Source of the DNA: a virus | Length of the DNA: 64,000 nt | IMG/VR virus record: IMGVR_UViG_3300042261_000588 | Span: 1 to 64,000 of that record | Reading direction: 5' to 3' (one strand) | Shown: positions 6,917 to 64,000 of the stretch, piece by piece | How positions within the stretch are numbered: the stretch's first letter is position 1 | How the letters are laid out: every line of letters starts with the position of its first letter | Program-made: the position numbers and the translations under genes | The notes under the pieces: model-generated | What the model saw: only the letters and a program-made list of their open reading frames with translations | Told to the model about the DNA's origin: nothing | The model's database searches: none

Positions 6917-7329
6917 GTGATAGACAGATTAGACAGCATGGCTGCGAAAGTAGCCTTTCAGTTTTTTCGCAAAAGGGCAGCAAGAAGATTTGATCTTCGA
7001 TGCTGTCTTTTCTAATTTAAGGGAGAAGGATAGAGATTACAAGGATGGTCTTGAACAATCAGCCCGTGATTCTTTAAATAAAATGCTGATAAAAGACCTT
7101 ATTGGTAGAGGGCATGATGTCGTATCCGTCGAAATCAGCTTAGGGAAGTATCGTGGATCAAGGTTCGTTACTTCGGCAAAGGTAGCGGTTCGGTTGAAGG
7201 ACATGAAGGATGCAAAGATTTTGGTAAAGGAACTTCAACGGTATCATAGGCCGTTACTCATTGAAGTCATTTGAGGATGGAGTGGCGGTTTACAACACCA
7301 AAGCGGAGGGTAGCCGAAATGAAAGCTGA
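6917..7329 (+). pseudogene. frameshifted hypothetical gene whose 3' end is the cassette insertion site
   Basis: GAGG RBS + GTG6917 (MIDRLDSMAAKVAF); continuity needs +1 shifts at TTTTTTC (~6962-6968) and CTTC (~7233-7236); the final frame reads ...DGVAVYN at the AAC junction. Confidence 0.5.
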
Positions 7330-7380: not shown

Positions 7381-7600
7381 CTCATGGCGTTTCCGTGTGG
7401 CCTGCGTAGGTTCGCACATTGCCAAGAAATACGGTCTGCTCTGCGTTGACGAAACGCACGGTGGTCACGACCAGCATTACGGTTGGCCTATGCGGTCGAT
7501 AGGGCTGGAGTGGTCATGGCGGCGGAATACGTGGTTTGCAGGGTGGGTATTAAGGCCGAACACGGTGCTGAGGGGCGACGGCCCCGGAAAGGACGCATGA
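7319..7600 (+). CDS. hypothetical cassette ORF
   Basis: GGAGG RBS in the attC arm; stop within the next attC loop; GC-rich. Confidence 0.65.
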   Translation: MKADDCKTTTGEAYPPEPCSASWRFRVACVGSHIAKKYGLLCVDETHGGHDQHYGWPMRSIGLEWSWRRNTWFAGWVLRPNTVLRGDGPGKDA

Positions 7601-7653
7601 CTACACCAAACACGGGCGCCGGGGCCGTCGTACCCTCCGGCACATTGTTGGAC
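7555..7653 (-). mobile_element. attC-like site 5 (array B)
   Basis: GCCGAAC-5 nt-GCTGAGGGGCGACGGCCCCGG / CCGGGGCCGTCGTACCCTCCGGC-5 nt-GTTGGAC. Confidence 0.8.
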
Positions 7654-10266: not shown

Positions 10267-12668
10267 GATTCTCATTTAAAGCATTGGTCATAACCTCAGT
10301 ATTGGCTTTTGTGTGGCCTGTATTGGCCGCTGATGTGACGAACAGTTTTGGAACCGTATTGGCTCGAAAAGTGTTGATTGGAACCGTCTCTAATCATTTT
10401 GAGGTAACTCAATCAATTACCAATGGTCTTGCCTCGACAAATTATGTGATTGAGGCTACCAATCCAATCCCTAGCTGGATAACCTCTGCGATTAACGCCG
10501 CGACGAACGGAATCCCGCACGGCTCGCTGTCTGGCATAGAAGGCGCGGGGACGCTGCACGTTTCGGCGGCAGAGACGAGCAAGGTTGCGACCGCATGGCA
10601 GAATCCATCAAGCGCAACCAACTGGACGTGGACCAAGACAGATACGGAAGTGACGCTGACAGGATATACCGGTCCGAATGAGGTGGTGATTCCTGATATG
10701 TTGGATGGGTTGCCGGTGACTGGGTTCGGGAATATATTTGAACTCAACGCTGTAATCACGCGTGTAACTGGTGGTGGGAATATCAGGTCAATCTCATTCA
10801 GAGCATTTACTTGGTGTTCTGAGTTATTGTGGATTGCGCTCCCCAATGTTACGACAATTGGAGACCAAGCATTTCAAAGCTGCATAAAGCTGGCGGATGC
10901 AAAATTCCCTAACGTCACGACCATTGGAGGCTATGCGTTTGGCTATTGCGGGGATGTAAGATTTGACCCTATGCCTAATGTCACTTCGGTTGGGACGTAT
11001 GCGTTCTATCAGTGCCAGGACATGGGATCAATGTACTTCTCAGGGAACGCACCAACAGAAGCACTTAATGTTTTCGATTTAGCTAATCCCAGCATTACCA
11101 ACTACGTCACCAACCCGACCGCCACTGGATGGGGTGCGACGTGGAACGGCAGACCGGTTGTGCGGTTGCCTGTCTACGCCAACCAATTTATCGGGGGAGG
11201 CGCAGGAGTGTCCAACGTGCCTATTGCTGGCGTGACCGGGCTGGCCGACGCGCTGGCGGGCAAGGTGTCCACCAACAACTTCCTCGGTTTGGTCAACGGG
11301 CTGTCTGTGCGCGATCCGGTCTTGTCGCTGGCGGTTGATGCAACAGGCCCGTATGCGACCGTTACGCCGTCGCCAGCCGGCCAGATTGAATACTGGTTCG
11401 GTCAATCAATTGTGCAGTACGGCACCAGCGTGGTGGTGCGGCTGACGGCGGGGACTACGAACACTCCTGCGCTCAACTATGTGTGCGCCTTGCCGAACGG
11501 GACGATTACGAATTACACGAGCTATCCGTACTTGACCAGCGGCACGGCGGCGGATGCGCGCGCAATGATGTTCGAGATTTTCCTGATGGACACCAACAGC
11601 ATCGTGGCTGGCAATGGCTACGCGATTAGGAGCTGGACGGAGAATGTGGAGAACCGGCGCGGGCTGGGGCGCGTGTCGTGGATCGGGGAGCGGGTGCGAC
11701 GGCTTCCGGCGATATGGGAGAGCGGCGTCCAGGCTTCTGTCTCGACGACCAACTCCAGCGTGACGGACGCTTACCTCACGACGACCGATGGCGTGGGTTG
11801 GCAAATGCACAGCCACACGATTCCAGCCAACACGAATCGGACAATGATGTGGGTGCTCAACTCGGCGTCGGGGTTCCGGGCAATCACGAATCTGAACGCT
11901 CTGACGGCACTGCCGAGCGGCGCGGCGATGTTCGGGTCGGTCGGGGATTGTCACGCGATCAATGTGTTTGCCTTTGTGGAGAGCGGAATCACGCCGAAAT
12001 CGACGCGCCTGATGCTCAATCTTTCGAGCGCGAGTTACACGGCTGGTCCTGCTTCGACTCGGCTGGCCAACTGTATCGCGGACGCCAGCAGTTACGATAA
12101 CACAGGCGTACCGGTTTACATGCAAGGGATGACAATCCGCATTGCCCGCATCGTGGTGCGGAGTGATGCGGCCGGCCGGACGTACTGGATTTATGACCGG
12201 CGCGGGCAGCCGTTGGGGACGGCGGGCGGCGGGGCGAGCGGTAGCGGGGAGAGCGATCCGATATTTGCGGCATGGCTTGCGAGCGCGGCGGAATCCATGC
12301 CGACGACCGAGCGCGTGTACACGCCGACGATCACGCAGGCGACGGCGGCGGGGATCACGAACACGATTGCGGTTGTGCCGACCAACAGAATCTATCGGCT
12401 GACCGTGACCAATTTGACCAGCGTGCTGGCCTTCGACCTGTCCGGGCTCAACATCGGCACGCAGGTAGCGGATTGGTCAACCATGATTACGGTCGCTCAT
12501 ACGAACGTGAGTTTCGCGTACCCGGCGACGAATGCGACGTTGCGTTACTTGTCCACGCCGACGGTCTCGACGACGCGCTCTAACCAACTGCTGCGGGCGA
12601 ATTGGCAGGCATACATCTGCAGCTTGGGCAAGACGAACATCATCTGCAATCAATGGGACTCGTTCTAA
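10263..12668 (+). CDS. signal-peptide-bearing fibre/adhesin-like protein with BspA-type LRRs
   Basis: MRFSFKALVITSVLAFVWPVLA signal; LTGYTGPNEVVIPDMLDGLPVT and repeated PNVTTIGxxAF; Thr/Asn-rich. Confidence 0.75.
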   Translation: MRFSFKALVITSVLAFVWPVLAADVTNSFGTVLARKVLIGTVSNHFEVTQSITNGLASTNYVIEATNPIPSWITSAINAATNGIPHGSLSGIEGAGTLHVSAAETSKVATAWQNPSSATNWTWTKTDTEVTLTGYTGPNEVVIPDMLDGLPVTGFGNIFELNAVITRVTGGGNIRSISFRAFTWCSELLWIALPNVTTIGDQAFQSCIKLADAKFPNVTTIGGYAFGYCGDVRFDPMPNVTSVGTYAFYQCQDMGSMYFSGNAPTEALNVFDLANPSITNYVTNPTATGWGATWNGRPVVRLPVYANQFIGGGAGVSNVPIAGVTGLADALAGKVSTNNFLGLVNGLSVRDPVLSLAVDATGPYATVTPSPAGQIEYWFGQSIVQYGTSVVVRLTAGTTNTPALNYVCALPNGTITNYTSYPYLTSGTAADARAMMFEIFLMDTNSIVAGNGYAIRSWTENVENRRGLGRVSWIGERVRRLPAIWESGVQASVSTTNSSVTDAYLTTTDGVGWQMHSHTIPANTNRTMMWVLNSASGFRAITNLNALTALPSGAAMFGSVGDCHAINVFAFVESGITPKSTRLMLNLSSASYTAGPASTRLANCIADASSYDNTGVPVYMQGMTIRIARIVVRSDAAGRTYWIYDRRGQPLGTAGGGASGSGESDPIFAAWLASAAESMPTTERVYTPTITQATAAGITNTIAVVPTNRIYRLTVTNLTSVLAFDLSGLNIGTQVADWSTMITVAHTNVSFAYPATNATLRYLSTPTVSTTRSNQLLRANWQAYICSLGKTNIICNQWDSF

Positions 12669-16186: not shown

Positions 16187-16460
16187 AACTGGAAAAGTAG
16201 GTCCTGCGTTCGTTAAGGTTGGAACGATAAGGGATATGAAAGCTGTTGCTGATAAACTCGGTATGGTTCGGGTAGCCATTCAGCAGATCAAGGAATCTGA
16301 AGAGGCGATGATGGATAAAGACATTAGCGACCGGGACTGGAGGGAGGCCGTTTTTCTGACCGTGAAGGCGGCTGAAAAGGGCAAAGATTGGTGTGAGGAT
16401 ACGATTGAGCTTTTGAATAAGATCAAGCGGAATTCAGAAGCCTATCTAAGGAGTTTGTAG
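16176..16460 (+). CDS. hypothetical helical protein
   Basis: RBS AAGGAAGG; overlaps the upstream stop. Confidence 0.7.
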   Translation: MFDRTGKVGPAFVKVGTIRDMKAVADKLGMVRVAIQQIKESEEAMMDKDISDRDWREAVFLTVKAAEKGKDWCEDTIELLNKIKRNSEAYLRSL

Positions 16461-17258
16461 ATGGCATTGGTGGATACAGCGACATTGATTGCAGTAGCAG
16501 ATCGAGCTGCCTATCAATATGGTCAGCTTCAGGATGCTTGTGCTGTTGTTCAGGCTGTAGGGAATGGGTATTACTTCGACCTAGTTTCCGTAACAGAAGA
16601 TGCAGATGTTGAAATTCCCTGTAACTCTGTTTATTATGATGTTGACCATGATCTTCAGGTTGATTTCATGGTCAAGAATGGGACGAGGCTCGCAGGCGTT
16701 ATAGGCGGAATGGAAGCCCACTTTAGTCGTGATAATGGATCAGGAGTGCCATTGCAGGTGGGTGGATGGGATGGGTATCTCACATCCAAGGACCAGCGGG
16801 TAAGCTATTACTTCGCCAAGTTATTTTTTGCAACACATGGGTTCTATATGTTGGCTAATAATGTCTTTTCGGAAAGCGAGGATCAATTTGCAAGATTGCA
16901 GGTTACAACTGGACCCGGCTTGACATACACAGACGGTGTGAATTATGGGACTGGTTCTGCGGCTAATCCGGCAAATGGGACATTCTATGCAGCAACTCAA
17001 TTAAAGGTGGTTGTGACGACAATGGGTGAGGCACAATTGGACGTGAGGCTGTCTGTGAAGGACCAAAACAATAATTTGACGACTATTGATGTGACGATAC
17101 CCGGTGGTTCACTGCCAGGGGCAGAAATATCAATTGGAACAACGACTGATCGGTTTCTTGACGTTACTGCAGCTATTTTCAATCCAGAAGGCTCTGCCGG
17201 GACTGTAGGAGATGATATAAAAGTGGTGAATCTTAAAGAGCGGCAGATTGCTCTTTAA
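16461..17258 (+). CDS. hypothetical virion protein
   Basis: RBS AAGGAG; structural-type composition. Confidence 0.75.
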   Translation: MALVDTATLIAVADRAAYQYGQLQDACAVVQAVGNGYYFDLVSVTEDADVEIPCNSVYYDVDHDLQVDFMVKNGTRLAGVIGGMEAHFSRDNGSGVPLQVGGWDGYLTSKDQRVSYYFAKLFFATHGFYMLANNVFSESEDQFARLQVTTGPGLTYTDGVNYGTGSAANPANGTFYAATQLKVVVTTMGEAQLDVRLSVKDQNNNLTTIDVTIPGGSLPGAEISIGTTTDRFLDVTAAIFNPEGSAGTVGDDIKVVNLKERQIAL

Positions 17259-57953: not shown

Positions 57954-57995
57954 GGAGATTGTTATGCACAATAAGGCGATATGGAAAGAGGAGCA

Positions 57996-60900
57996 ATGAG
58001 CAATCTTTCTGACTTCTATGTTGAAAATAAGACTCCTAATTCGGACAAGATTCAACTTGAGAAGAACATCCTCTTCGTAGTTCCTGAGAAAGGACACGAC
58101 ATATCGGGAGTTCTTGCTGAGTTTGGATTGTCTCGTTTCGAGATTGCACTGACATGGCCGAAATCTTCAGTATCGATACTCGATGAGATTGAGGCTGTTG
58201 GGGCAAAAGTGGTTTTACAGTTGGACTGTCAGTTGTCCATGAAGTATCCCGTTATCAACAGTCAGAAGCTTGAAACACTCGAACCGTTCAAGGCTCGTGT
58301 ATCCAAGGAGATTGCCGATCAGTTCGTTGGACTTCATCATCACGACGAGTTCAGTATCAAGGATGGACTCGGTACTGTTTCAAGTCTTGTTAAGTTATTG
58401 AAAGCTCAGAGACGTTCATTCTGTTGTATCACCAATCATGGTAGTGTTGGCGGATGGATCAAGCAATATAATGCTTGCAAGAAAGCCGGAATCAAGGCCA
58501 TTTTCGCCATGGAGGCATATACCTCAAACTATCGTGGAGCCGATCCAGAGATAAAGAAGGCTCATCGTTCGGCTAATCATCTTGTTCTCCTTGCCAATAC
58601 AGAAGAAGGGTTTTTCAACATCATTCGTATTCATAATGATGCTCAGCTCAATGGTTTCTACTACACTCCAAGGGTCAATCGGGAGGCTTTGGAGAAGTGG
58701 GGCAAGGGAATTATCGCCACATCAGCTTGCATGGCGGGAGAGCTGTCTAGGCTTCTCATGGATGGCAAAGAGGCAGAAGCCAAGGAGATGTGGGAGTTTC
58801 ATTCGAGGGTCTTCGACGCTTTCTATGTTGAGATTCAGATTATCGAAATGGAAGAACAGAGAGAGGCAAATCGTCGGTTGATTAAGTTTGCTCGGAATGT
58901 TGGAGCACCCATTGTAGTCACATTGGACTCTCACTATTTAGACCCGGAATATTCATCAACTCATGATGTTCTGATGTGTCTTCGTCAGAAGAAAACGCTC
59001 GTAGACAAGCGTGAGAAAGATGATGTCTGGAGTTTCGATGTCAAAAATCTTTTCTATCGAGATGCAGATTCCGTGAGAGACGTATTTGAGAATGGTTGGA
59101 CAGATGACAATGGAGAGTATCACTATCCTTTCAAGGATGGTGTATTTACAGAGGAAGTTTTTGCTGAGGCGATGGAGAATACATTGAAGATCGCTAGGGG
59201 AACAAAAGAGATTACATTGGACTCAAAGATCAAGCTCCCCCAGCTTTATGATAATGGAAAGGAAGTTCTTCGCAAGAAGGTCAATGCCGGTTTTACAGCT
59301 CGCGGGTATATGAAGAAACCAAACCGGGATGAATATGTAAGTAGGCTCAAGTACGAGTTTGACATCATTACAAAAACTGGATGGTGCGATTATTTTCTAA
59401 CGATGGAGAGGATTGTGGCAGATGCAAGAAAAGAATTCGGAGAATGGGCGTGGGGATATGGCAGGGGATCATCGGCATCTTCGTTGGTCGTAAATTGTCT
59501 CGGTATTACCGATATTGATCCAATAGAGTACGGCCTTATTTTTGAAAGATTCCTAGATTATTCCAGACCAGACCCTCCAGACATAGATGTGGATGCAGAT
59601 CCACGTATTCGCGATTGGATTAAAAGGCACATCGTGGAAGTTTTTGGAGAGAATAAAGTCTGCTCGATTGGCACTTATGCGACATACAAGACTCGTGCCG
59701 TCATCTTGGACGTTGCAAGGGCACTTGGAGAAAATCTAGCAGAAGTTAGTGCCGTGACTAAAAGAATTGAACCGCTGAGAGCATTTGAGGATGGGGCCGG
59801 AGAAGAGTTCAAAGTGGATCAGATGGACTTCGATGTCCTTTGCGAGCACTATCCAGAGTTGAAGGCTTACTTTGATCAGCACCCGGAAGTTAGAACACAT
59901 TCAGAGATACTTAGAAATCAAGTCAAGAATATGGGGACTCATGCTGGTGGTGTCATCGTGTCAGACCTTGACCTTAAGGATCGAATTCCCGTATGTCGAG
60001 ATAAGAGTGGTCAGATTGTTTCAACATGGGGGGAATCCGGCAATGTCCAGGAATTGAGTGCCGTTGGTCTTGTAAAACTAGATTTGCTCGGATTGAAGAC
60101 GTTGTCTGTCATTTCTGACTGCGTCAAGATGATTGAGAACACAACCGGGCAACATATAGCCAGGGCCGACATTCCCATTAGTGATCGCGAATCGATATTG
60201 AAGGGATCAAAAAAGGATTTGGTCGGTATATTTCAGTTTGAAAATCCTGTTACAAAACCGATTGCTGATGCGGTTGGTATGGAATCGTTGATGGACGTTG
60301 CCGTCGTAACATCTTTGATTCGCCCAGGGCCAATGGATGCAATGATCGATGGTGTCAGGATGCCGATGGAGTACGCACGTCGTAAGCACGGAGGAGAGTA
60401 TAAATCCCCGGAGTTTATTAAGACGGCACTGTCTAATACTCATTCACTATTGGTTTTCCAAGAAGACACGATGAATCTAGCTCGCGTGTTGGCCGGATAC
60501 TCGCCGTTAGAAGCAAATCGGCTTAGAAAATCAGTCGGAAAAAAGATTCGAGAATTGATGATTTCGATGCGTGATAGCTTTATTAACGGGGCAAAACCGA
60601 GAATAGATTCTGGAGAAATCACACTAGTAGAAGTCGAGGATATGTGGAGCCAGATTGAGAAGTTTTCTGGGTACGGGTTTGCAAAACCACACGCCGTTGC
60701 CTATGGAGCCATTACGACGGTTGAATTGTGGTTGAAGTACAACTTCCCCATTCAGTTCTGTACTGCTCTTCTCAACAATACGAAGCTAGGAAAGAAAAAG
60801 CACGGGTCAGATAATGTTCTCGTGGACTACATCAATTATGCTCGCAGGCGTGAAATTCCAGTTCTTGTTCCTGACATCAATATGAGTAGAGACGAATTCA

Positions 60901-61940
60901 GTATTGAAGGTGACTCGATTCGTTTTGCATTAGGACATGTAAAGGGTGTTGCCACGGCAGCAAAACTTATTGAAGCCTTTCAGCCTTTCACTGGTATGAA
61001 GGACTTCTATGACCGGGTTAAGGTAGTTGATGACGAAGATGATGATACGGTCACGGAAGTGGCCGATGGTGAGGCCGGAGTAAAAGAGGATACAGAGACA
61101 GAGCCGACTATTAAAACACCGAAGAAGGTCGCTGTTCGGCGTCCTAATCGTAGGGTGGTAGAGACTCTGATTGCGGCTGGCGCTTTTGATAGATTCGGCA
61201 CTCGAAACGAGATGTCGATGGAATACTGGCGTCTTTGCAGGAAGCCGACAAAGAAGGATCGTCTGGCTCTAAAGGTCTTGGAAGCAGAAGAGGCCGTTAA
61301 AGAGGCTGCGTTGGCCCTAGTGACGGCACAACAGAGTGGTGTCGAAAAGGACATCAAGAAGGCGACAAAGGCACTCTCCAAGGCAGAGGAGAGAGTGGTT
61401 AAGACTAAGCAAGCGATCATTGACGACGACAAGGTTGACAAGGTGATTGCCGATAGTCAAAAAGATGAAGGCGCAGCGGAAGAGGTAATTAAGAAGGCGA
61501 GTAAGGATTTGCCTCCAGAAGACAAGACTGTTGAGGAATGGCAAGAAGCAGAAGCCGAAGTTCTTGGTCTATGCCTGTCTCGTCCGATGCTTTACAAGGA
61601 GTATGAGGACCGGATTCAGAAAGAGGGCTGGCATCTGATTTCTGAAATAGACCCATCACAAAAGAGGGTGATGGTGTTTGGAGAGATCATGGAGGTAAGG
61701 CAGCAAATCTCAAAGGCTGGGAACTCCATGCACGTCGTTCAGTTGTCTGATGGTCTGGATACGATGAATTTCTTCGTCTTTCAGGGCGGATGGGATTTTT
61801 TCAAGGATAACTTCCGCACAGGGTATATTGGGGCAGTGCCACTGGCTAAATTTGACGATGATGGAAACTCTGACAATTCAAAGAAGCAAACTAGGTTCTT
61901 TGATGACCGTGGCAAGTGTATAATACTCAAGAAGGGTTAA
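57996..61940 (+). CDS. dnaE: DNA polymerase III alpha subunit
   Basis: PHP HHHDEFS...DSHY; GRGSS; FERFL; PDIDVD; HAGG; KLDLLG; IRPGP; FSGYGFAKPHA; C-terminal OB fold. Confidence 0.96.
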   Translation: MSNLSDFYVENKTPNSDKIQLEKNILFVVPEKGHDISGVLAEFGLSRFEIALTWPKSSVSILDEIEAVGAKVVLQLDCQLSMKYPVINSQKLETLEPFKARVSKEIADQFVGLHHHDEFSIKDGLGTVSSLVKLLKAQRRSFCCITNHGSVGGWIKQYNACKKAGIKAIFAMEAYTSNYRGADPEIKKAHRSANHLVLLANTEEGFFNIIRIHNDAQLNGFYYTPRVNREALEKWGKGIIATSACMAGELSRLLMDGKEAEAKEMWEFHSRVFDAFYVEIQIIEMEEQREANRRLIKFARNVGAPIVVTLDSHYLDPEYSSTHDVLMCLRQKKTLVDKREKDDVWSFDVKNLFYRDADSVRDVFENGWTDDNGEYHYPFKDGVFTEEVFAEAMENTLKIARGTKEITLDSKIKLPQLYDNGKEVLRKKVNAGFTARGYMKKPNRDEYVSRLKYEFDIITKTGWCDYFLTMERIVADARKEFGEWAWGYGRGSSASSLVVNCLGITDIDPIEYGLIFERFLDYSRPDPPDIDVDADPRIRDWIKRHIVEVFGENKVCSIGTYATYKTRAVILDVARALGENLAEVSAVTKRIEPLRAFEDGAGEEFKVDQMDFDVLCEHYPELKAYFDQHPEVRTHSEILRNQVKNMGTHAGGVIVSDLDLKDRIPVCRDKSGQIVSTWGESGNVQELSAVGLVKLDLLGLKTLSVISDCVKMIENTTGQHIARADIPISDRESILKGSKKDLVGIFQFENPVTKPIADAVGMESLMDVAVVTSLIRPGPMDAMIDGVRMPMEYARRKHGGEYKSPEFIKTALSNTHSLLVFQEDTMNLARVLAGYSPLEANRLRKSVGKKIRELMISMRDSFINGAKPRIDSGEITLVEVEDMWSQIEKFSGYGFAKPHAVAYGAITTVELWLKYNFPIQFCTALLNNTKLGKKKHGSDNVLVDYINYARRREIPVLVPDINMSRDEFSIEGDSIRFALGHVKGVATAAKLIEAFQPFTGMKDFYDRVKVVDDEDDDTVTEVADGEAGVKEDTETEPTIKTPKKVAVRRPNRRVVETLIAAGAFDRFGTRNEMSMEYWRLCRKPTKKDRLALKVLEAEEAVKEAALALVTAQQSGVEKDIKKATKALSKAEERVVKTKQAIIDDDKVDKVIADSQKDEGAAEEVIKKASKDLPPEDKTVEEWQEAEAEVLGLCLSRPMLYKEYEDRIQKEGWHLISEIDPSQKRVMVFGEIMEVRQQISKAGNSMHVVQLSDGLDTMNFFVFQGGWDFFKDNFRTGYIGAVPLAKFDDDGNSDNSKKQTRFFDDRGKCIILKKG

Positions 61941-61959
61941 AACAAAAAAGGAGGAAGGC

Positions 61960-62313
61960 ATGATCGAGAAGGGAACAGTGTTGCGTTGTAAGACGCAGAC
62001 GTTTGGAGATACGTTTGGAATTGTTTTGTGGGAGGTCGTTGAGACCGGGCTTCAAGCACCTGAGAAGGGACGTGAGAATCAAAAGGATGGTGTGAAGGTT
62101 GTCATGCTTGGTGGTTCTGGAGCCAATGCAAGGTCGGGAATTACGCTGACGGACTCCGAGGCTCATATTCAGCAGGACATTGATGCTGGTATTACCACCA
62201 TCGTTCCGTCTGACAAGCGAGAGGATATGCTTCTGAGTATCAAAAAGATGGTGAAGAGTGCGGGTGTTGGCAATATGCCCAAGCACTGTGGAGCCGGAGT
62301 CATCGAAATCTAG
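61960..62313 (+). CDS. hypothetical protein
   Basis: RBS AGGAGG. Confidence 0.8.
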   Translation: MIEKGTVLRCKTQTFGDTFGIVLWEVVETGLQAPEKGRENQKDGVKVVMLGGSGANARSGITLTDSEAHIQQDIDAGITTIVPSDKREDMLLSIKKMVKSAGVGNMPKHCGAGVIEI

Positions 62314-62327
62314 GGGGATCCATCATC

Positions 62328-62861
62328 ATGAGATGTCTTAATTGCGGAAAAGAGTTGTCGACGGGTGATGCTCCGAACAGTGCATTTTGCCGACAATGCC
62401 AAGATATTGGCACTTCGAAGCATTCTATGTCATTTGTAGCCGGGTGTGCAGGATGTGCAAGAGAATACGGTGGAGGGGCGATATGTTCACATTGCACACG
62501 AAATCCGATACACAAAGACATGTGGACCCAGAGATGTCGAGGTTGGATTTCATACGACTTTCACACGACACCACCCAGCGTGACGACTGTCCGCGAATTG
62601 GCATCACCGACTGGTTCGGGCTGCTACGCGCCAGAGCATCACGGACGCTGCTGCTGCAACTGCCGCTACCATCTTCGCGACCACTCGCACCCGCTCACGG
62701 ACGGCGGACGAATCACCGCGCAGCGCGGGTGGTTATGCAGCCCGCCTGAACTCGATGCAGCTTTCAGCGGTTGGTCCGAACATGGAATGTGCGAAATGCA
62801 CGATAGCCCGAATCACGAACGGGGCTGCTCACCCTCGGGCGGCCAAGGAGAAACGCCATGA
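62328..62861 (+). CDS. Cys-rich chimeric ORF (backbone N-terminus fused to cassette-derived C-terminus)
   Basis: Multiple CxxC motifs; GC shift near 62560 and half attC-like site ending GTTCGGG at 62620. Confidence 0.5.
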   Translation: MRCLNCGKELSTGDAPNSAFCRQCQDIGTSKHSMSFVAGCAGCAREYGGGAICSHCTRNPIHKDMWTQRCRGWISYDFHTTPPSVTTVRELASPTGSGCYAPEHHGRCCCNCRYHLRDHSHPLTDGGRITAQRGWLCSPPELDAAFSGWSEHGMCEMHDSPNHERGCSPSGGQGETP

Positions 62862-62913
62862 CAAAACCGAAACGCCAGCGGGCCTCCCGTAGCGGTGAAG
62901 CGGCTTGTTCGGC
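62814..62913 (-). mobile_element. attC-like site (array C)
   Basis: CACGAAC-6 nt-GCTCACC ... GGTGAAGC-5 nt-GTTCGGC; AAGGAG RBS and ATGA junction in the loop. Confidence 0.75.
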
Positions 62914-63118
62914 AGATACCATCCGCATGAACTGGTTGGAAACGGTATCGTGCAAAATATACGGTGTCGCGGTTCCGAGTGGCGACATTACCGTTCTGGA
63001 ATGGGATACGGATGGACACACCGAACGCACAGCCGAGGCCGCTACGCTTCGAGACGCGATTGACGCCGCAATGCTGATGCCGAACATGAGGCTTGAGGAA
63101 CGGAGCGCAGCGGAATGA
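62858..63118 (+). CDS. hypothetical cassette ORF
   Basis: DTIRMNWLE...TLRDAIDAAM; start and stop both lie inside attC loops. Confidence 0.7.
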   Translation: MTKPKRQRASRSGEAACSADTIRMNWLETVSCKIYGVAVPSGDITVLEWDTDGHTERTAEAATLRDAIDAAMLMPNMRLEERSAAE

Positions 63119-63145
63119 CGAATAGCCTCGACTCTCTGGTTGGTC
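63079..63145 (-). mobile_element. attC-like site (array C)
   Basis: Minus strand GACCAAC-5 nt-AGT[C]GAGG ... CCTCAAG-6 nt-GTTCGGC. Confidence 0.65.
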
Positions 63146-63663
63146 TTTCCGGGTTCCGCACGATTGTGGCTGACCCGCCGTGGCCGATCAAGTGGCAGCG
63201 CAACGCCGGGATCGGGAAGCGAGAACTTGACTACCCGACAATGCCGATAGCAGAAATGTGCCTGCTTCCTGTGCGCGAGTTGGCCGACAAGGACGGTTGC
63301 ACGCTGTTTTTGTGGACGACGAACGCCTTTCTTCAGGAGGGGCTAGGCATCGTGAAGGCGTGGGGGTTCACCTATGAAATGCTCTATACATGGTGCAAGA
63401 ACAACGGCATGGGCGGACATCCACGATGCGCCACAGAACACATGATTATCGCCGTACGAGGAACACCAAAGCGTGGAGACAGACACGACCCCATGACGTT
63501 GAACTGGGGTGTGTTTCCGCTTGGCAAACACAGCGAGAAGCCTGAAGCCGTGCAAGACATGATCGAACGGATTACAGAGGGGCCACGGCTCGAACTGTTC
63601 GCCCGTCGCGTCAGGCCGAACTGGGTTTGCTGGGGTAACGAGGTAGAGGCTAACCATGTATGA
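63115..63663 (+). CDS. MT-A70 family N6-adenine methyltransferase (cassette cargo)
   Basis: IVADPPW, YPTM, LFLWTT, WGF, HSEKP, LELFAR, WGNE. Confidence 0.92.
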   Translation: MTNSLDSLVGLSGFRTIVADPPWPIKWQRNAGIGKRELDYPTMPIAEMCLLPVRELADKDGCTLFLWTTNAFLQEGLGIVKAWGFTYEMLYTWCKNNGMGGHPRCATEHMIIAVRGTPKRGDRHDPMTLNWGVFPLGKHSEKPEAVQDMIERITEGPRLELFARRVRPNWVCWGNEVEANHV

Positions 63664-63815
63664 CAAACGGGTTTGTCTCCGTGGGCACAAACGAAGTGCA
63701 ACATGCCATGGATAAAGATTCCTATGTCAAGGGTGCCAACGATGCGCTGGACGGAATTATGCTTCTAGACCTTGAGCAACGGTTGCAGGGACGAATCGAA
63801 ATTGGGAAACAATGA
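63660..63815 (+). CDS. small hypothetical protein
   Basis: ATGA overlap with the MT-A70 stop; 51 aa; below the ORF-track threshold. Confidence 0.35.
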   Translation: MTNGFVSVGTNEVQHAMDKDSYVKGANDALDGIMLLDLEQRLQGRIEIGKQ

Positions 63816-63867
63816 CCGAGGTTGTTTGTGCGAGATTAAACATTAAACGATCAAAAATAGGAGACGT

Positions 63868-64000
63868 ATGAAAAATCGAATTGTGATTGTAACAGCTATC
63901 ATTATAGTTTATGGCGTATTTGCACAGGAGCCTATCAAGGTTGATCTGTCAGAGATGGTGGGTTCGCCAGCGGCGATGATCGCACCACCAATTACTAACT
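63868..64000 (+). CDS. signal-peptide-bearing protein, runs off the window edge
   Basis: RBS AGGAG; MKNRIVIVTAIIIVYGVFA. Confidence 0.6.
   Translation, partial: MKNRIVIVTAIIIVYGVFAQEPIKVDLSEMVGSPAAMIAPPITN

Follow-up and report, generated by a model that had tools for sequence, protein, structure and literature searches.

The window analysed here comprises the first 64 kb (64,000 nucleotides, nt) of IMG/VR virus record IMGVR_UViG_3300042261_000588, a 143,854-nt sequence that is estimated to be ~67% complete and whose source is a large lake phage. The window has a GC content of 47% and its + strand holds nearly all of the genes. Near the right end of the window, between 62614 and 63654, lies a compact stretch termed array C. 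It carries three cargo genes, the last of which encodes an N6-adenine methyltransferase of the MT-A70 family. The organization of array C, which is probably an array of integron-type gene cassettes, is the subject of this study.

Three units may be distinguished in array C, with all features on the + strand. The first unit runs from GTTCGGGCT (62614) to AGCCCGAA(T). At its head is an R'-type core, GTTCGGGCT (62614–62622), that complements AGCCCGAAT at eight of nine positions and ATCACGAAC at seven of nine. The cargo of this unit, as delimited by alignments to homologs, is the conserved core of a small Cys/His-rich phage protein (62619–62804; CCCNC ... GMCEMH). Its R''-type end, AGCCCGAAT (62805–62813), stands in tandem with the real R'' of the site that follows, so that AA|C is marked by a duplication or scar of 7 nt. 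That site, C1 (62814–62913), is an attC-like imperfect palindrome of 100 nt (CACGAAC ... GTTCGGC) with CACGAAC as its left box (62814–62820) and GTTCGGCA as its right box (62907–62914). The second unit extends from GTTCGGCA of C1 (62907) to TGCCGAAC (63078–63085), and these two boxes, which match perfectly over 8 nt, flank the cargo ORF86 (62858–63118), encoding a protein of 86 aa. Site C2 (63079–63145) is an attC-like sequence of 67 nt (GCCGAAC ... GTTGGTC) that supplies the head of the third unit, GTTGGTCTT (63139–63147). The cargo of the third unit is the intact MT-A70 gene (63115–63663; 182 aa), and the unit ends at 63654 with a lone R''-type core, GAGGCTAAC (63646–63654). This core is the right end of the array; GC content falls here and the low-GC backbone resumes at 63655.

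The two sites are 165 nt apart, separate the units from each other, and have the gene junctions in their loops. The C1 loop holds the stop codon of ORF177 (62328–62861), a ribosome binding site (RBS; AAGGAG) and the start of ORF86 (ATGA at 62858); the C2 loop holds the stop codon of ORF86, an RBS (GGAG) and the start of the MT-A70 gene (ATGA at 63115). ORF177 is a chimeric frame: its amino terminal part is low in GC and runs on, in frame, into the Cys-rich domain carried by the cassette. ORF177, ORF86, the MT-A70 gene and ORF51, a frame to the right of the array, are all linked by ATGA overlaps that leave no intergenic room. Since stop, RBS and next start lie together in the loops, the cargo and the phage replication genes would form a single operon with coupled translation.

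The MT-A70 gene matches the whole of Pfam PF05063 (profile positions 1–172 of 172, E = 7.9e-28, 98 bits against a cut-off of 23.9) and phrog_359, annotated as 'DNA methyltransferase' (E = 4.9e-51). An ADPPWP motif at residues 19–24 aligns to the DPPW motif of METTL3, the catalytic domain of which is the nearest solved structure. The gene is intact, is co-oriented and translationally coupled with the replication genes, and has no endonuclease partner adjoining it. The best match among sequenced phage isolates has 43–44% identity (Gordonia phages) and relatives from metagenomes reach 80–83%; the close relatives are all uncultured and mostly cassette-borne. The methyltransferase would be expected to protect phage DNA from host restriction.

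The relationship of C1 and C2 to other sites of the phage was evaluated with two anchored position-weight profiles, one for each half of a site (5' and 3'). These were trained on 11–13 sites outside array C, and every AAC and GTT in the genome (143.8-kb record) was scored. The 3' half of C1 ranked 1 of 2803 and its 5' half 10 of 1718, while the 5' and 3' halves of C2 ranked 4 of 1718 and 9 of 2803, respectively. In both sites the paired halves are 60–100 nt apart, and fewer than 0.03 such chance pairs are estimated to occur genome-wide. The sequence of C1, and not only its shape, is common to sites at 77995, 78293, 137307 and 141681, which are 15–80 kb away; these share the 5' end AAC-N6-GCTCACC and the 3' end GGTGAAGC-N3-TTGTTCGGC. 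C1 and C2 are members of a genome-wide family of AAC...GTT imperfect palindromes. Within this family, AAC and GTT are invariant. GCCGAAC, CACGAAC, GTTCGGC and GTTGGTC deviate from the RYYYAAC/GTTRRRY consensus at position 4 or 6 and GGCTAAC fits it, while the cores of relatives include the canonical attC types GCCTAAC, GTTAGGG and GTTAGCC. A genome-wide scan for AAC...GTT hairpins was also tried as a detector and was rejected since its hits included numerous unrelated hairpins but not the control site B3.

The spacing from CACGAAC to GCTCACC in C1 is the same as in site D2, so CACGAAC is the true left box and AGCCCGAAT is an extra element. Two inverse-core heptamers, CCCGAAT and CACGAAC, are arranged in tandem over 62805–62820, and similar doubled cores, GCCGAAATGA followed by GCCGAAC, are present at ~299–322 and 7312–7320. 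As can be read from the sequence, the box at 62614 would have a 9/9 complement if TCACGAA were removed at AA|C. An earlier sequence-only reading of this DNA had placed attC-like sites at 62814–62913 and 63079–63145, and the profile ranks support both; each of its short motifs was also found at the coordinate given for it. The same reading had taken CACGAAC for an extra core and a possible recombination scar. An extra tandem element does exist, but it is AGCCCGAAT, and CACGAAC is the left box of C1.

A crossover within the boxes is expected to leave a footprint: complementarity should be better between the GTT box preceding a gene and the AAC box following that gene than between the paired boxes of a single site. 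Across the 12 neighbouring pairs of the whole record, the perfect runs were 3, 9, 5, 5, 8, 3, 9, 4, 9, 3, 7 and 4 nt. Runs of 7–9 nt were found for five of the 12 neighbours; runs within single sites never exceeded 5 nt and only 8% of the non-adjacent combinations had runs of at least 7 nt. A permutation in which the partners were shuffled gave P = 0.0004 for box complementarity across genes, and the rule holds genome-wide. In array C, ORF86 is the 8-nt case among the 12 neighbours (GTTCGGCA against TGCCGAAC, 8/8), and in the Cys-rich unit the box at 62614 complements AGCCCGAAT at 8/9.

Homologs of the MT-A70 gene have similar ends of their own. In twenty MT-A70 loci from a metagenome scan, and in loci L005, L007 and L008, the regions around the two gene ends were searched for perfect inverted runs of the GTT.../...AAC type, and the longest was taken. 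In 9–10 independent contexts (57–82% identity), the homolog was found to have its own perfect GTT.../...AAC ends of 7–12 nt at positions homologous to those of the window. The longest run, 12 nt, is found in L008, L053 and L054 (GTTAGGGGTCAC / GTGACCCCTAAC). Runs of 10 nt are present in L058 (GTTATGGGCA), L060 and L061 (GTTAGGTGGC), L062 (GTTATAAGCT) and L005 (GTTCTCTGCC), runs of 8 nt in L007 and L055 (GTTATACC) and L068 (GTTCGACA), and a run of 7 nt in L059 (GTTATAC). In random spans of the same length taken from this phage as a control, the probability of a run of at least 8 nt was 0.005 and a run of at least 10 nt occurred in 0 of 3000 trials. The ends also agree in position. The distance from GTT to the DPPW codons is 26–59 nt in the homolog loci and 33 nt in the window, and the homologs have their own ...TAAC end 4–46 nt past the residue equivalent to the right end in the window. 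In direct DNA alignments, the GTT cores of L010 and L007 align with GTTGGTC of the window and the right ends align likewise.

The flanks of L058, L005, L068 and L053 contain attC-like palindromes with the methyltransferase ATG in the loop or arm, which is the layout of C2. Loci L008, L010 and L011 share an identical MT-A70 gene and an identical upstream site, and the sequence on the left of the ...AAC box is a different one in each of the three. Relatives of the MT-A70 gene and of the Cys-rich protein, each ~80% identical, occur in unrelated contexts, and the three cargo genes do not form a conserved block. From these comparisons, it is clear that this MT-A70 clade is mobile between GTT...AAC ends. 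The sequence-only reading had taken the cargo to include a functional gene, plausibly for anti-restriction methylation; by its full-length PF05063 match and its DPPW motif, the MT-A70 gene is intact. It had further suggested that close homologs be examined for the same kind of ends at different loci, and that homologs in syntenic positions without palindromic flanks would speak against a cassette. As described, perfect ends of 7–12 nt were found in 9–10 contexts, these contexts differ, and attC-like flanks are present.

Methyltransferase cargo recurs at other loci, with an N6_N4_Mtase gene after the MT-A70 gene in L008 and a second MT-A70 gene in L007. In a siphovirus-like contig (L005, 1879–3410, and L006) with a DnaB helicase gene upstream and a terminase gene downstream, the MT-A70 gene has matching ends of 10 nt and is followed by an attC-like site and then by a second, longer MT-A70-like gene. 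The phage itself has a second methyltransferase cassette beyond the window (L019, 18201–18941; 142,201–142,941 of the record). Here, the ATG of an N6_N4_Mtase gene lies inside an attC-like site (~142,249), and the ends, GTTGGGC / GCCCAAC, match at 7/7 with the neighbouring site.

The Cys-rich carboxy terminal part of ORF177 has up to 86% identity to free-standing proteins of 59–134 aa, and the Cys-rich genes of L013 and L015 are homologous to it at the DNA level from ~62619 on. The family, of ~60–100 aa with an invariant CCCNC ... SxW.EHG.CE pattern, was observed in at least 32 IMG/VR viral contigs (L021–L052). It has no Pfam or PHROG match and is probably a metal-binding phage protein. In a 23.6-kb viral contig (L045, 2378–2750), a Cys-rich gene forms a compact cassette, GTTAGCC ... 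GGCTAAC, between two near-identical attC-like sites of 57 nt; the stop codon is right past the AAC box, and the RBS and ATG are past the GTT box. The Cys-rich genes of L025 and L026 have 10-nt inverted ends. ORF86 has a weak match to phrog_37882 and one relative, L020, which is 42% identical. Protein-atlas look-ups for the Cys-rich protein and ORF86 returned no function.

Upstream of the array are a DNA polymerase III alpha gene (57981–61940, 1319 aa) and a conserved gene of 117 aa (orf117, 61960–62313). The related viral contigs L002, L003 and L004 encode a polymerase III alpha that is 47–70% identical to that of the phage, and share orf117 as well as glycosyltransferase-like genes from 64350 on. 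The genes in between differ in each contig. Since the backbone is common to all three and the intervening genes are not, the array occupies a slot of variable content within a conserved backbone. A blastn search of 60000–64000 against GenBank phages returned no match. In L004 (8001–13230), the polymerase match covers 5.2 kb as opposed to 4.0 kb and the frame restarts at 10654, which suggests an insertion such as an intein, an intron or a homing-endonuclease gene. A LAGLIDADG-like ORF is found at 16387–17232 of the same contig.

Array C forms a GC island, from ~62560–62570 to 63655, with a GC content of 57–63% and a third-codon-position GC content (GC3) of 0.60–0.67. Both flanks have a GC3 of 0.38–0.46 and the edges are sharp. 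The left edge falls within ORF177, where GC3 is 0.38 for 62328–62561 versus 0.65 for 62562–62861. The low-GC amino terminal part of ORF177 (approximately residues 1–90) contains CxxC pairs, and a homolog search with this part found no relatives. The Cys-rich gene no longer has a start of its own and continues this backbone frame. Just left of the first core, the GC-rich stretch at 62565–62613 may represent a head site of which only a truncated 3' arm is left; the assignment is weakly supported since the 16 nt upstream of the core at 62614 rank only 70 of 2803 in the profile. Thus, of the half site ending at 62620 that the earlier reading had reported, the core is present and the arm is doubtful. 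At the right end, no profile similarity extends beyond the core, GGCTAAC, and the backbone resumes directly past ...AAC. ORF51 (63660–63815) is a backbone orphan frame that overlaps the MT-A70 stop (ATGA), is in the same frame as ORF177, and has no relative among 1.8 billion representative proteins. When 62614–63654 (1041 nt) is removed, ORF51 continues the frame of the amino terminal part of ORF177, and the two together make 148 aa. A backbone gene interrupted at this join is possible; an in-frame join is a one-in-three coincidence. The three backbone relatives have other genes in the slot and no empty site.

Considered as a whole, the evidence makes it probable that 62614–63654 is a phage cassette array without an integrase, that is, a cluster of attC sites lacking integron-integrases (CALIN), in which three integron-type cassettes deliver an intact MT-A70 gene. 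In each unit, the GTTnnnn box on the left and the complementary nnnnAAC box on the right would be the trace of a crossover that took place within a box of an attC-like site in its folded state. Movement would be catalyzed by an integron-integrase-like tyrosine recombinase supplied in trans.

The orientation of the moving unit requires separate consideration. Array C does not have the classical layout, as the start codons at 62858 and 63115 and their RBS are inside the site loops; compact sites elsewhere, in L045 and at 77995 and 78293 of the phage record, do fit the classical layout. The phase from ATG to GTT is 1 in C1 and 0 in C2, and all three values (0, 1 and 2) are found across the sites of the genome. 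Because the phase varies, a classical G|TT crossover would part starts from gene bodies in incompatible frames. Together with the shared upstream site of L008, L010 and L011, this variation favours a unit that consists of a site and the gene downstream of it, although homogeneous sites in a classical array could also mimic the pattern of these three loci. The site would then travel with its downstream gene and the crossover would fall at AA|C on the + strand, which is equivalent to an attC that is inverted relative to its gene. Under this inverted model, one precise end and one truncated head site would be the simplest reading of the outer junctions. A further-reaching proposal can be offered only tentatively, and we consider it rather doubtful. 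In it, large lake phages would keep a phage-adapted cassette system with a folded site, bearing the RBS and start, 5' of each gene. The + strand would fold and be cut at AA|C, and the units of site plus gene, with methyltransferases prominent among them, would be swapped between phages as a counter-defence toolkit by a recombinase acting in trans, maybe not a classical integron integrase.

A number of observations weigh against array C as a CALIN. The ends of the MT-A70 unit, GTTGGTCTT and GAGGCTAAC, complement each other at only 6/9 (5/7), with a perfect run of 3 nt. The self-matching ends that the sequence-only reading described are therefore present for ORF86 (8/8) and the Cys-rich gene (8/9), and for the MT-A70 gene fall short as Watson-Crick pairs. 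All three mismatches in the MT-A70 unit are transitions, such that the match becomes 9/9 if G:T pairs are allowed on the + strand and does not on the - strand. This is consistent with decay or with selection on the + strand (random chance ~0.04). Neither outer junction has a complete site, the right side being a core only, and GC-rich DNA with similarity to P0121 (SPTGS) reaches ~15–50 nt left of 62614. Most of the 32 IMG/VR Cys-rich homologs are without such ends, so the family is only sometimes cassette-borne. The commonest cores of the phage, GCCGAAC / GTTCGGC, deviate from RYYYAAC / GTTRRRY at position 4. A search for tyrosine recombinases (PF00589) had no match in the 143,854-nt record, which is ~67% complete, and the control search was positive in 14 of 14 genomes. 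Any recombinase would therefore come in trans; the absence of an integrase also agrees with a CALIN as opposed to a complete integron.

Folding is a further point of this kind, since an attC site is expected to be an imperfect palindrome of ~57–141 nt that forms a bulged hairpin; C1 and C2 measure 100 and 67 nt. The folding energy of C1 is no better than that of shuffled sequences (z ~0 to -0.9), though its minimum-energy fold is one long hairpin closed by CGAAC/GTTCG. C2 folds poorly (z = +1.8, worse than shuffles) and has only an inner stem of 6 bp (GAGGCT/AGCCTC). The positive-control sites B3, D2 and G gave z = -3.1 to -5.3; individual values were -3.6 to -4.9 for B3 (7554–7653), -3.1 for the site at 78293 and -5.3 for the site at 141681. 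Folding energy separates the compact sites from background and does not separate the large-loop sites C1, L010 and L008. No consensus structure was obtained when ten sites were aligned with MAFFT and passed to RNAalifold, as the lengths of their loops vary. For this reason anchored half-profiles were used in place of a covariance model, and C1 and C2 were called by these profiles of our own. Recombination by IntI1 has been shown for the phage sites in PMC9892861; for the sites of array C, recombination is a prediction from sequence.

Some of these points would be accommodated if the units were bounded by GTT...AAC terminal inverted repeats and moved by a recombinase or transposase unrelated to integrons, the palindromes being abutting ends and a spacer. 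The array does end in lone cores without site bodies, the record has no integrase, the start codons are inside the sites unlike those of classic cassettes, and the 10-nt inverted ends of the Cys-rich genes in L025 and L026 have no evident hairpin beside them. However, the sequence of the bodies from AAC to GTT is conserved among arrays that are far apart, these bodies form long hairpins with bulges in the manner of attC, and the cores of relatives are those of canonical attC sites. No target-site duplications were noticed in the flanks that were read, although no dedicated search for them was made. Terminal repeats of this kind are thus an improbable explanation.

It is still less probable that array C is an ordinary mosaic island, meaning a GC-rich block of three genes that arrived by illegitimate or homologous recombination and in which the inverted matches arose by chance or as by-products of coding. 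Chance inverted repeats in an ordinary island were in fact our first reading, which was dropped after the shared site sequence, the box rule, the profile ranks and the homolog ends were seen. The ATGA overlaps of all four genes, the 57 inverted pairs within 1.6 kb, the folding of C1 and C2 no better than shuffles, and the non-canonical outer junctions would all suit such an island. It leaves unexplained the leave-out ranks of both halves of C1 and C2, the neighbour-specific complementarity of the boxes, and the perfect ends that independent MT-A70 homologs have of their own. The palindromes could instead be expression elements (translational-coupling hairpins, attenuators or terminators) and not recombination sites, as every loop holds a stop, an RBS and a start and all of the genes are ATGA-coupled. 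Yet a regulatory hairpin needs its own arms to pair and the outer boxes pair better across the neighbouring gene, and the DNA left of the AAC box differs between identical MT-A70 genes, making this explanation highly improbable.

If array C is a CALIN, it has some bearing on how genes are exchanged among phages. Of the routes for exchange of single genes among bacteria, integron cassettes are understood best, and it was not until 2023 that they were reported from phages. Array C and its metagenome relatives indicate that one MT-A70 clade circulates as single-gene cassettes among uncultured phages. If so, phages would gain a quick change of DNA methylation pattern and with it an escape from host restriction. 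The presence of stop, RBS and start inside the site suggests how a promoterless cassette may be expressed wherever it has landed in a phage operon. C1, C2 and the MT-A70 protein provide concrete sites and an enzyme for bench work.

The classical attC site has the order R''-L''...L'-R', and its bottom strand, once folded, undergoes crossover at G|TTRRRY; such sites are the target of IntegronFinder (bioRxiv 10.1101/030866). Array C resembles classical cassettes in its imperfect palindromes of 60–100 nt with AAC...GTT ends, in its promoterless genes of one orientation, and in the complementarity of the opening bases of a cassette to the inverse core at its other end. Unlike classical cassettes, it has no integrase or attI in view, the gene start is inside the site, and the outer junctions are without a complete site. 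Integron integrases can also insert cassettes outside att sites, in ordinary genes, at minimal 5'-GWT-3' (attG) sites (bioRxiv 10.1101/2022.09.11.507474). Such an insertion would suit an array inside a phage reading frame; however, its expected product has a complete attC at one end, array C has one at neither end, and the junction as reconstructed shows no evident GWT. As a result, attG insertion does not fit the junctions of array C.

With respect to its cargo, array C resembles the orphan MT-A70 methyltransferases of phages (PF05063; phrog_359), which are likewise single small DPPW enzymes with no adjoining endonuclease. It differs in that the best match among isolates is so distant (43–44%) and in that its close relatives are uncultured and mostly cassette-borne. 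The nearest known system is that of the CALINs described in temperate and virulent phages. Among their cassettes are some with DNA methyltransferase genes, and IntI1 recombines their sites (Qi, Rajabal, Ghaly, Tetu, Gillings 2023, Front Microbiol 14:1091391, PMC9892861). Protection from restriction has been proposed for these phage cassette methyltransferases, and lone or inverted GTTRRRY motifs at array boundaries were noted in the same study (PMC9892861). Like these CALINs, array C has at least two attC-like sites, no integrase nearby, and cassettes in one direction. In contrast to them, it carries an MT-A70 family gene. Its sites extend over the gene junctions, hold the stop, RBS and start in their loops, and lie at the head of the genes. 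The most frequent cores are GCCGAAC/GTTCGGC, and the host is a large phage with several such arrays.

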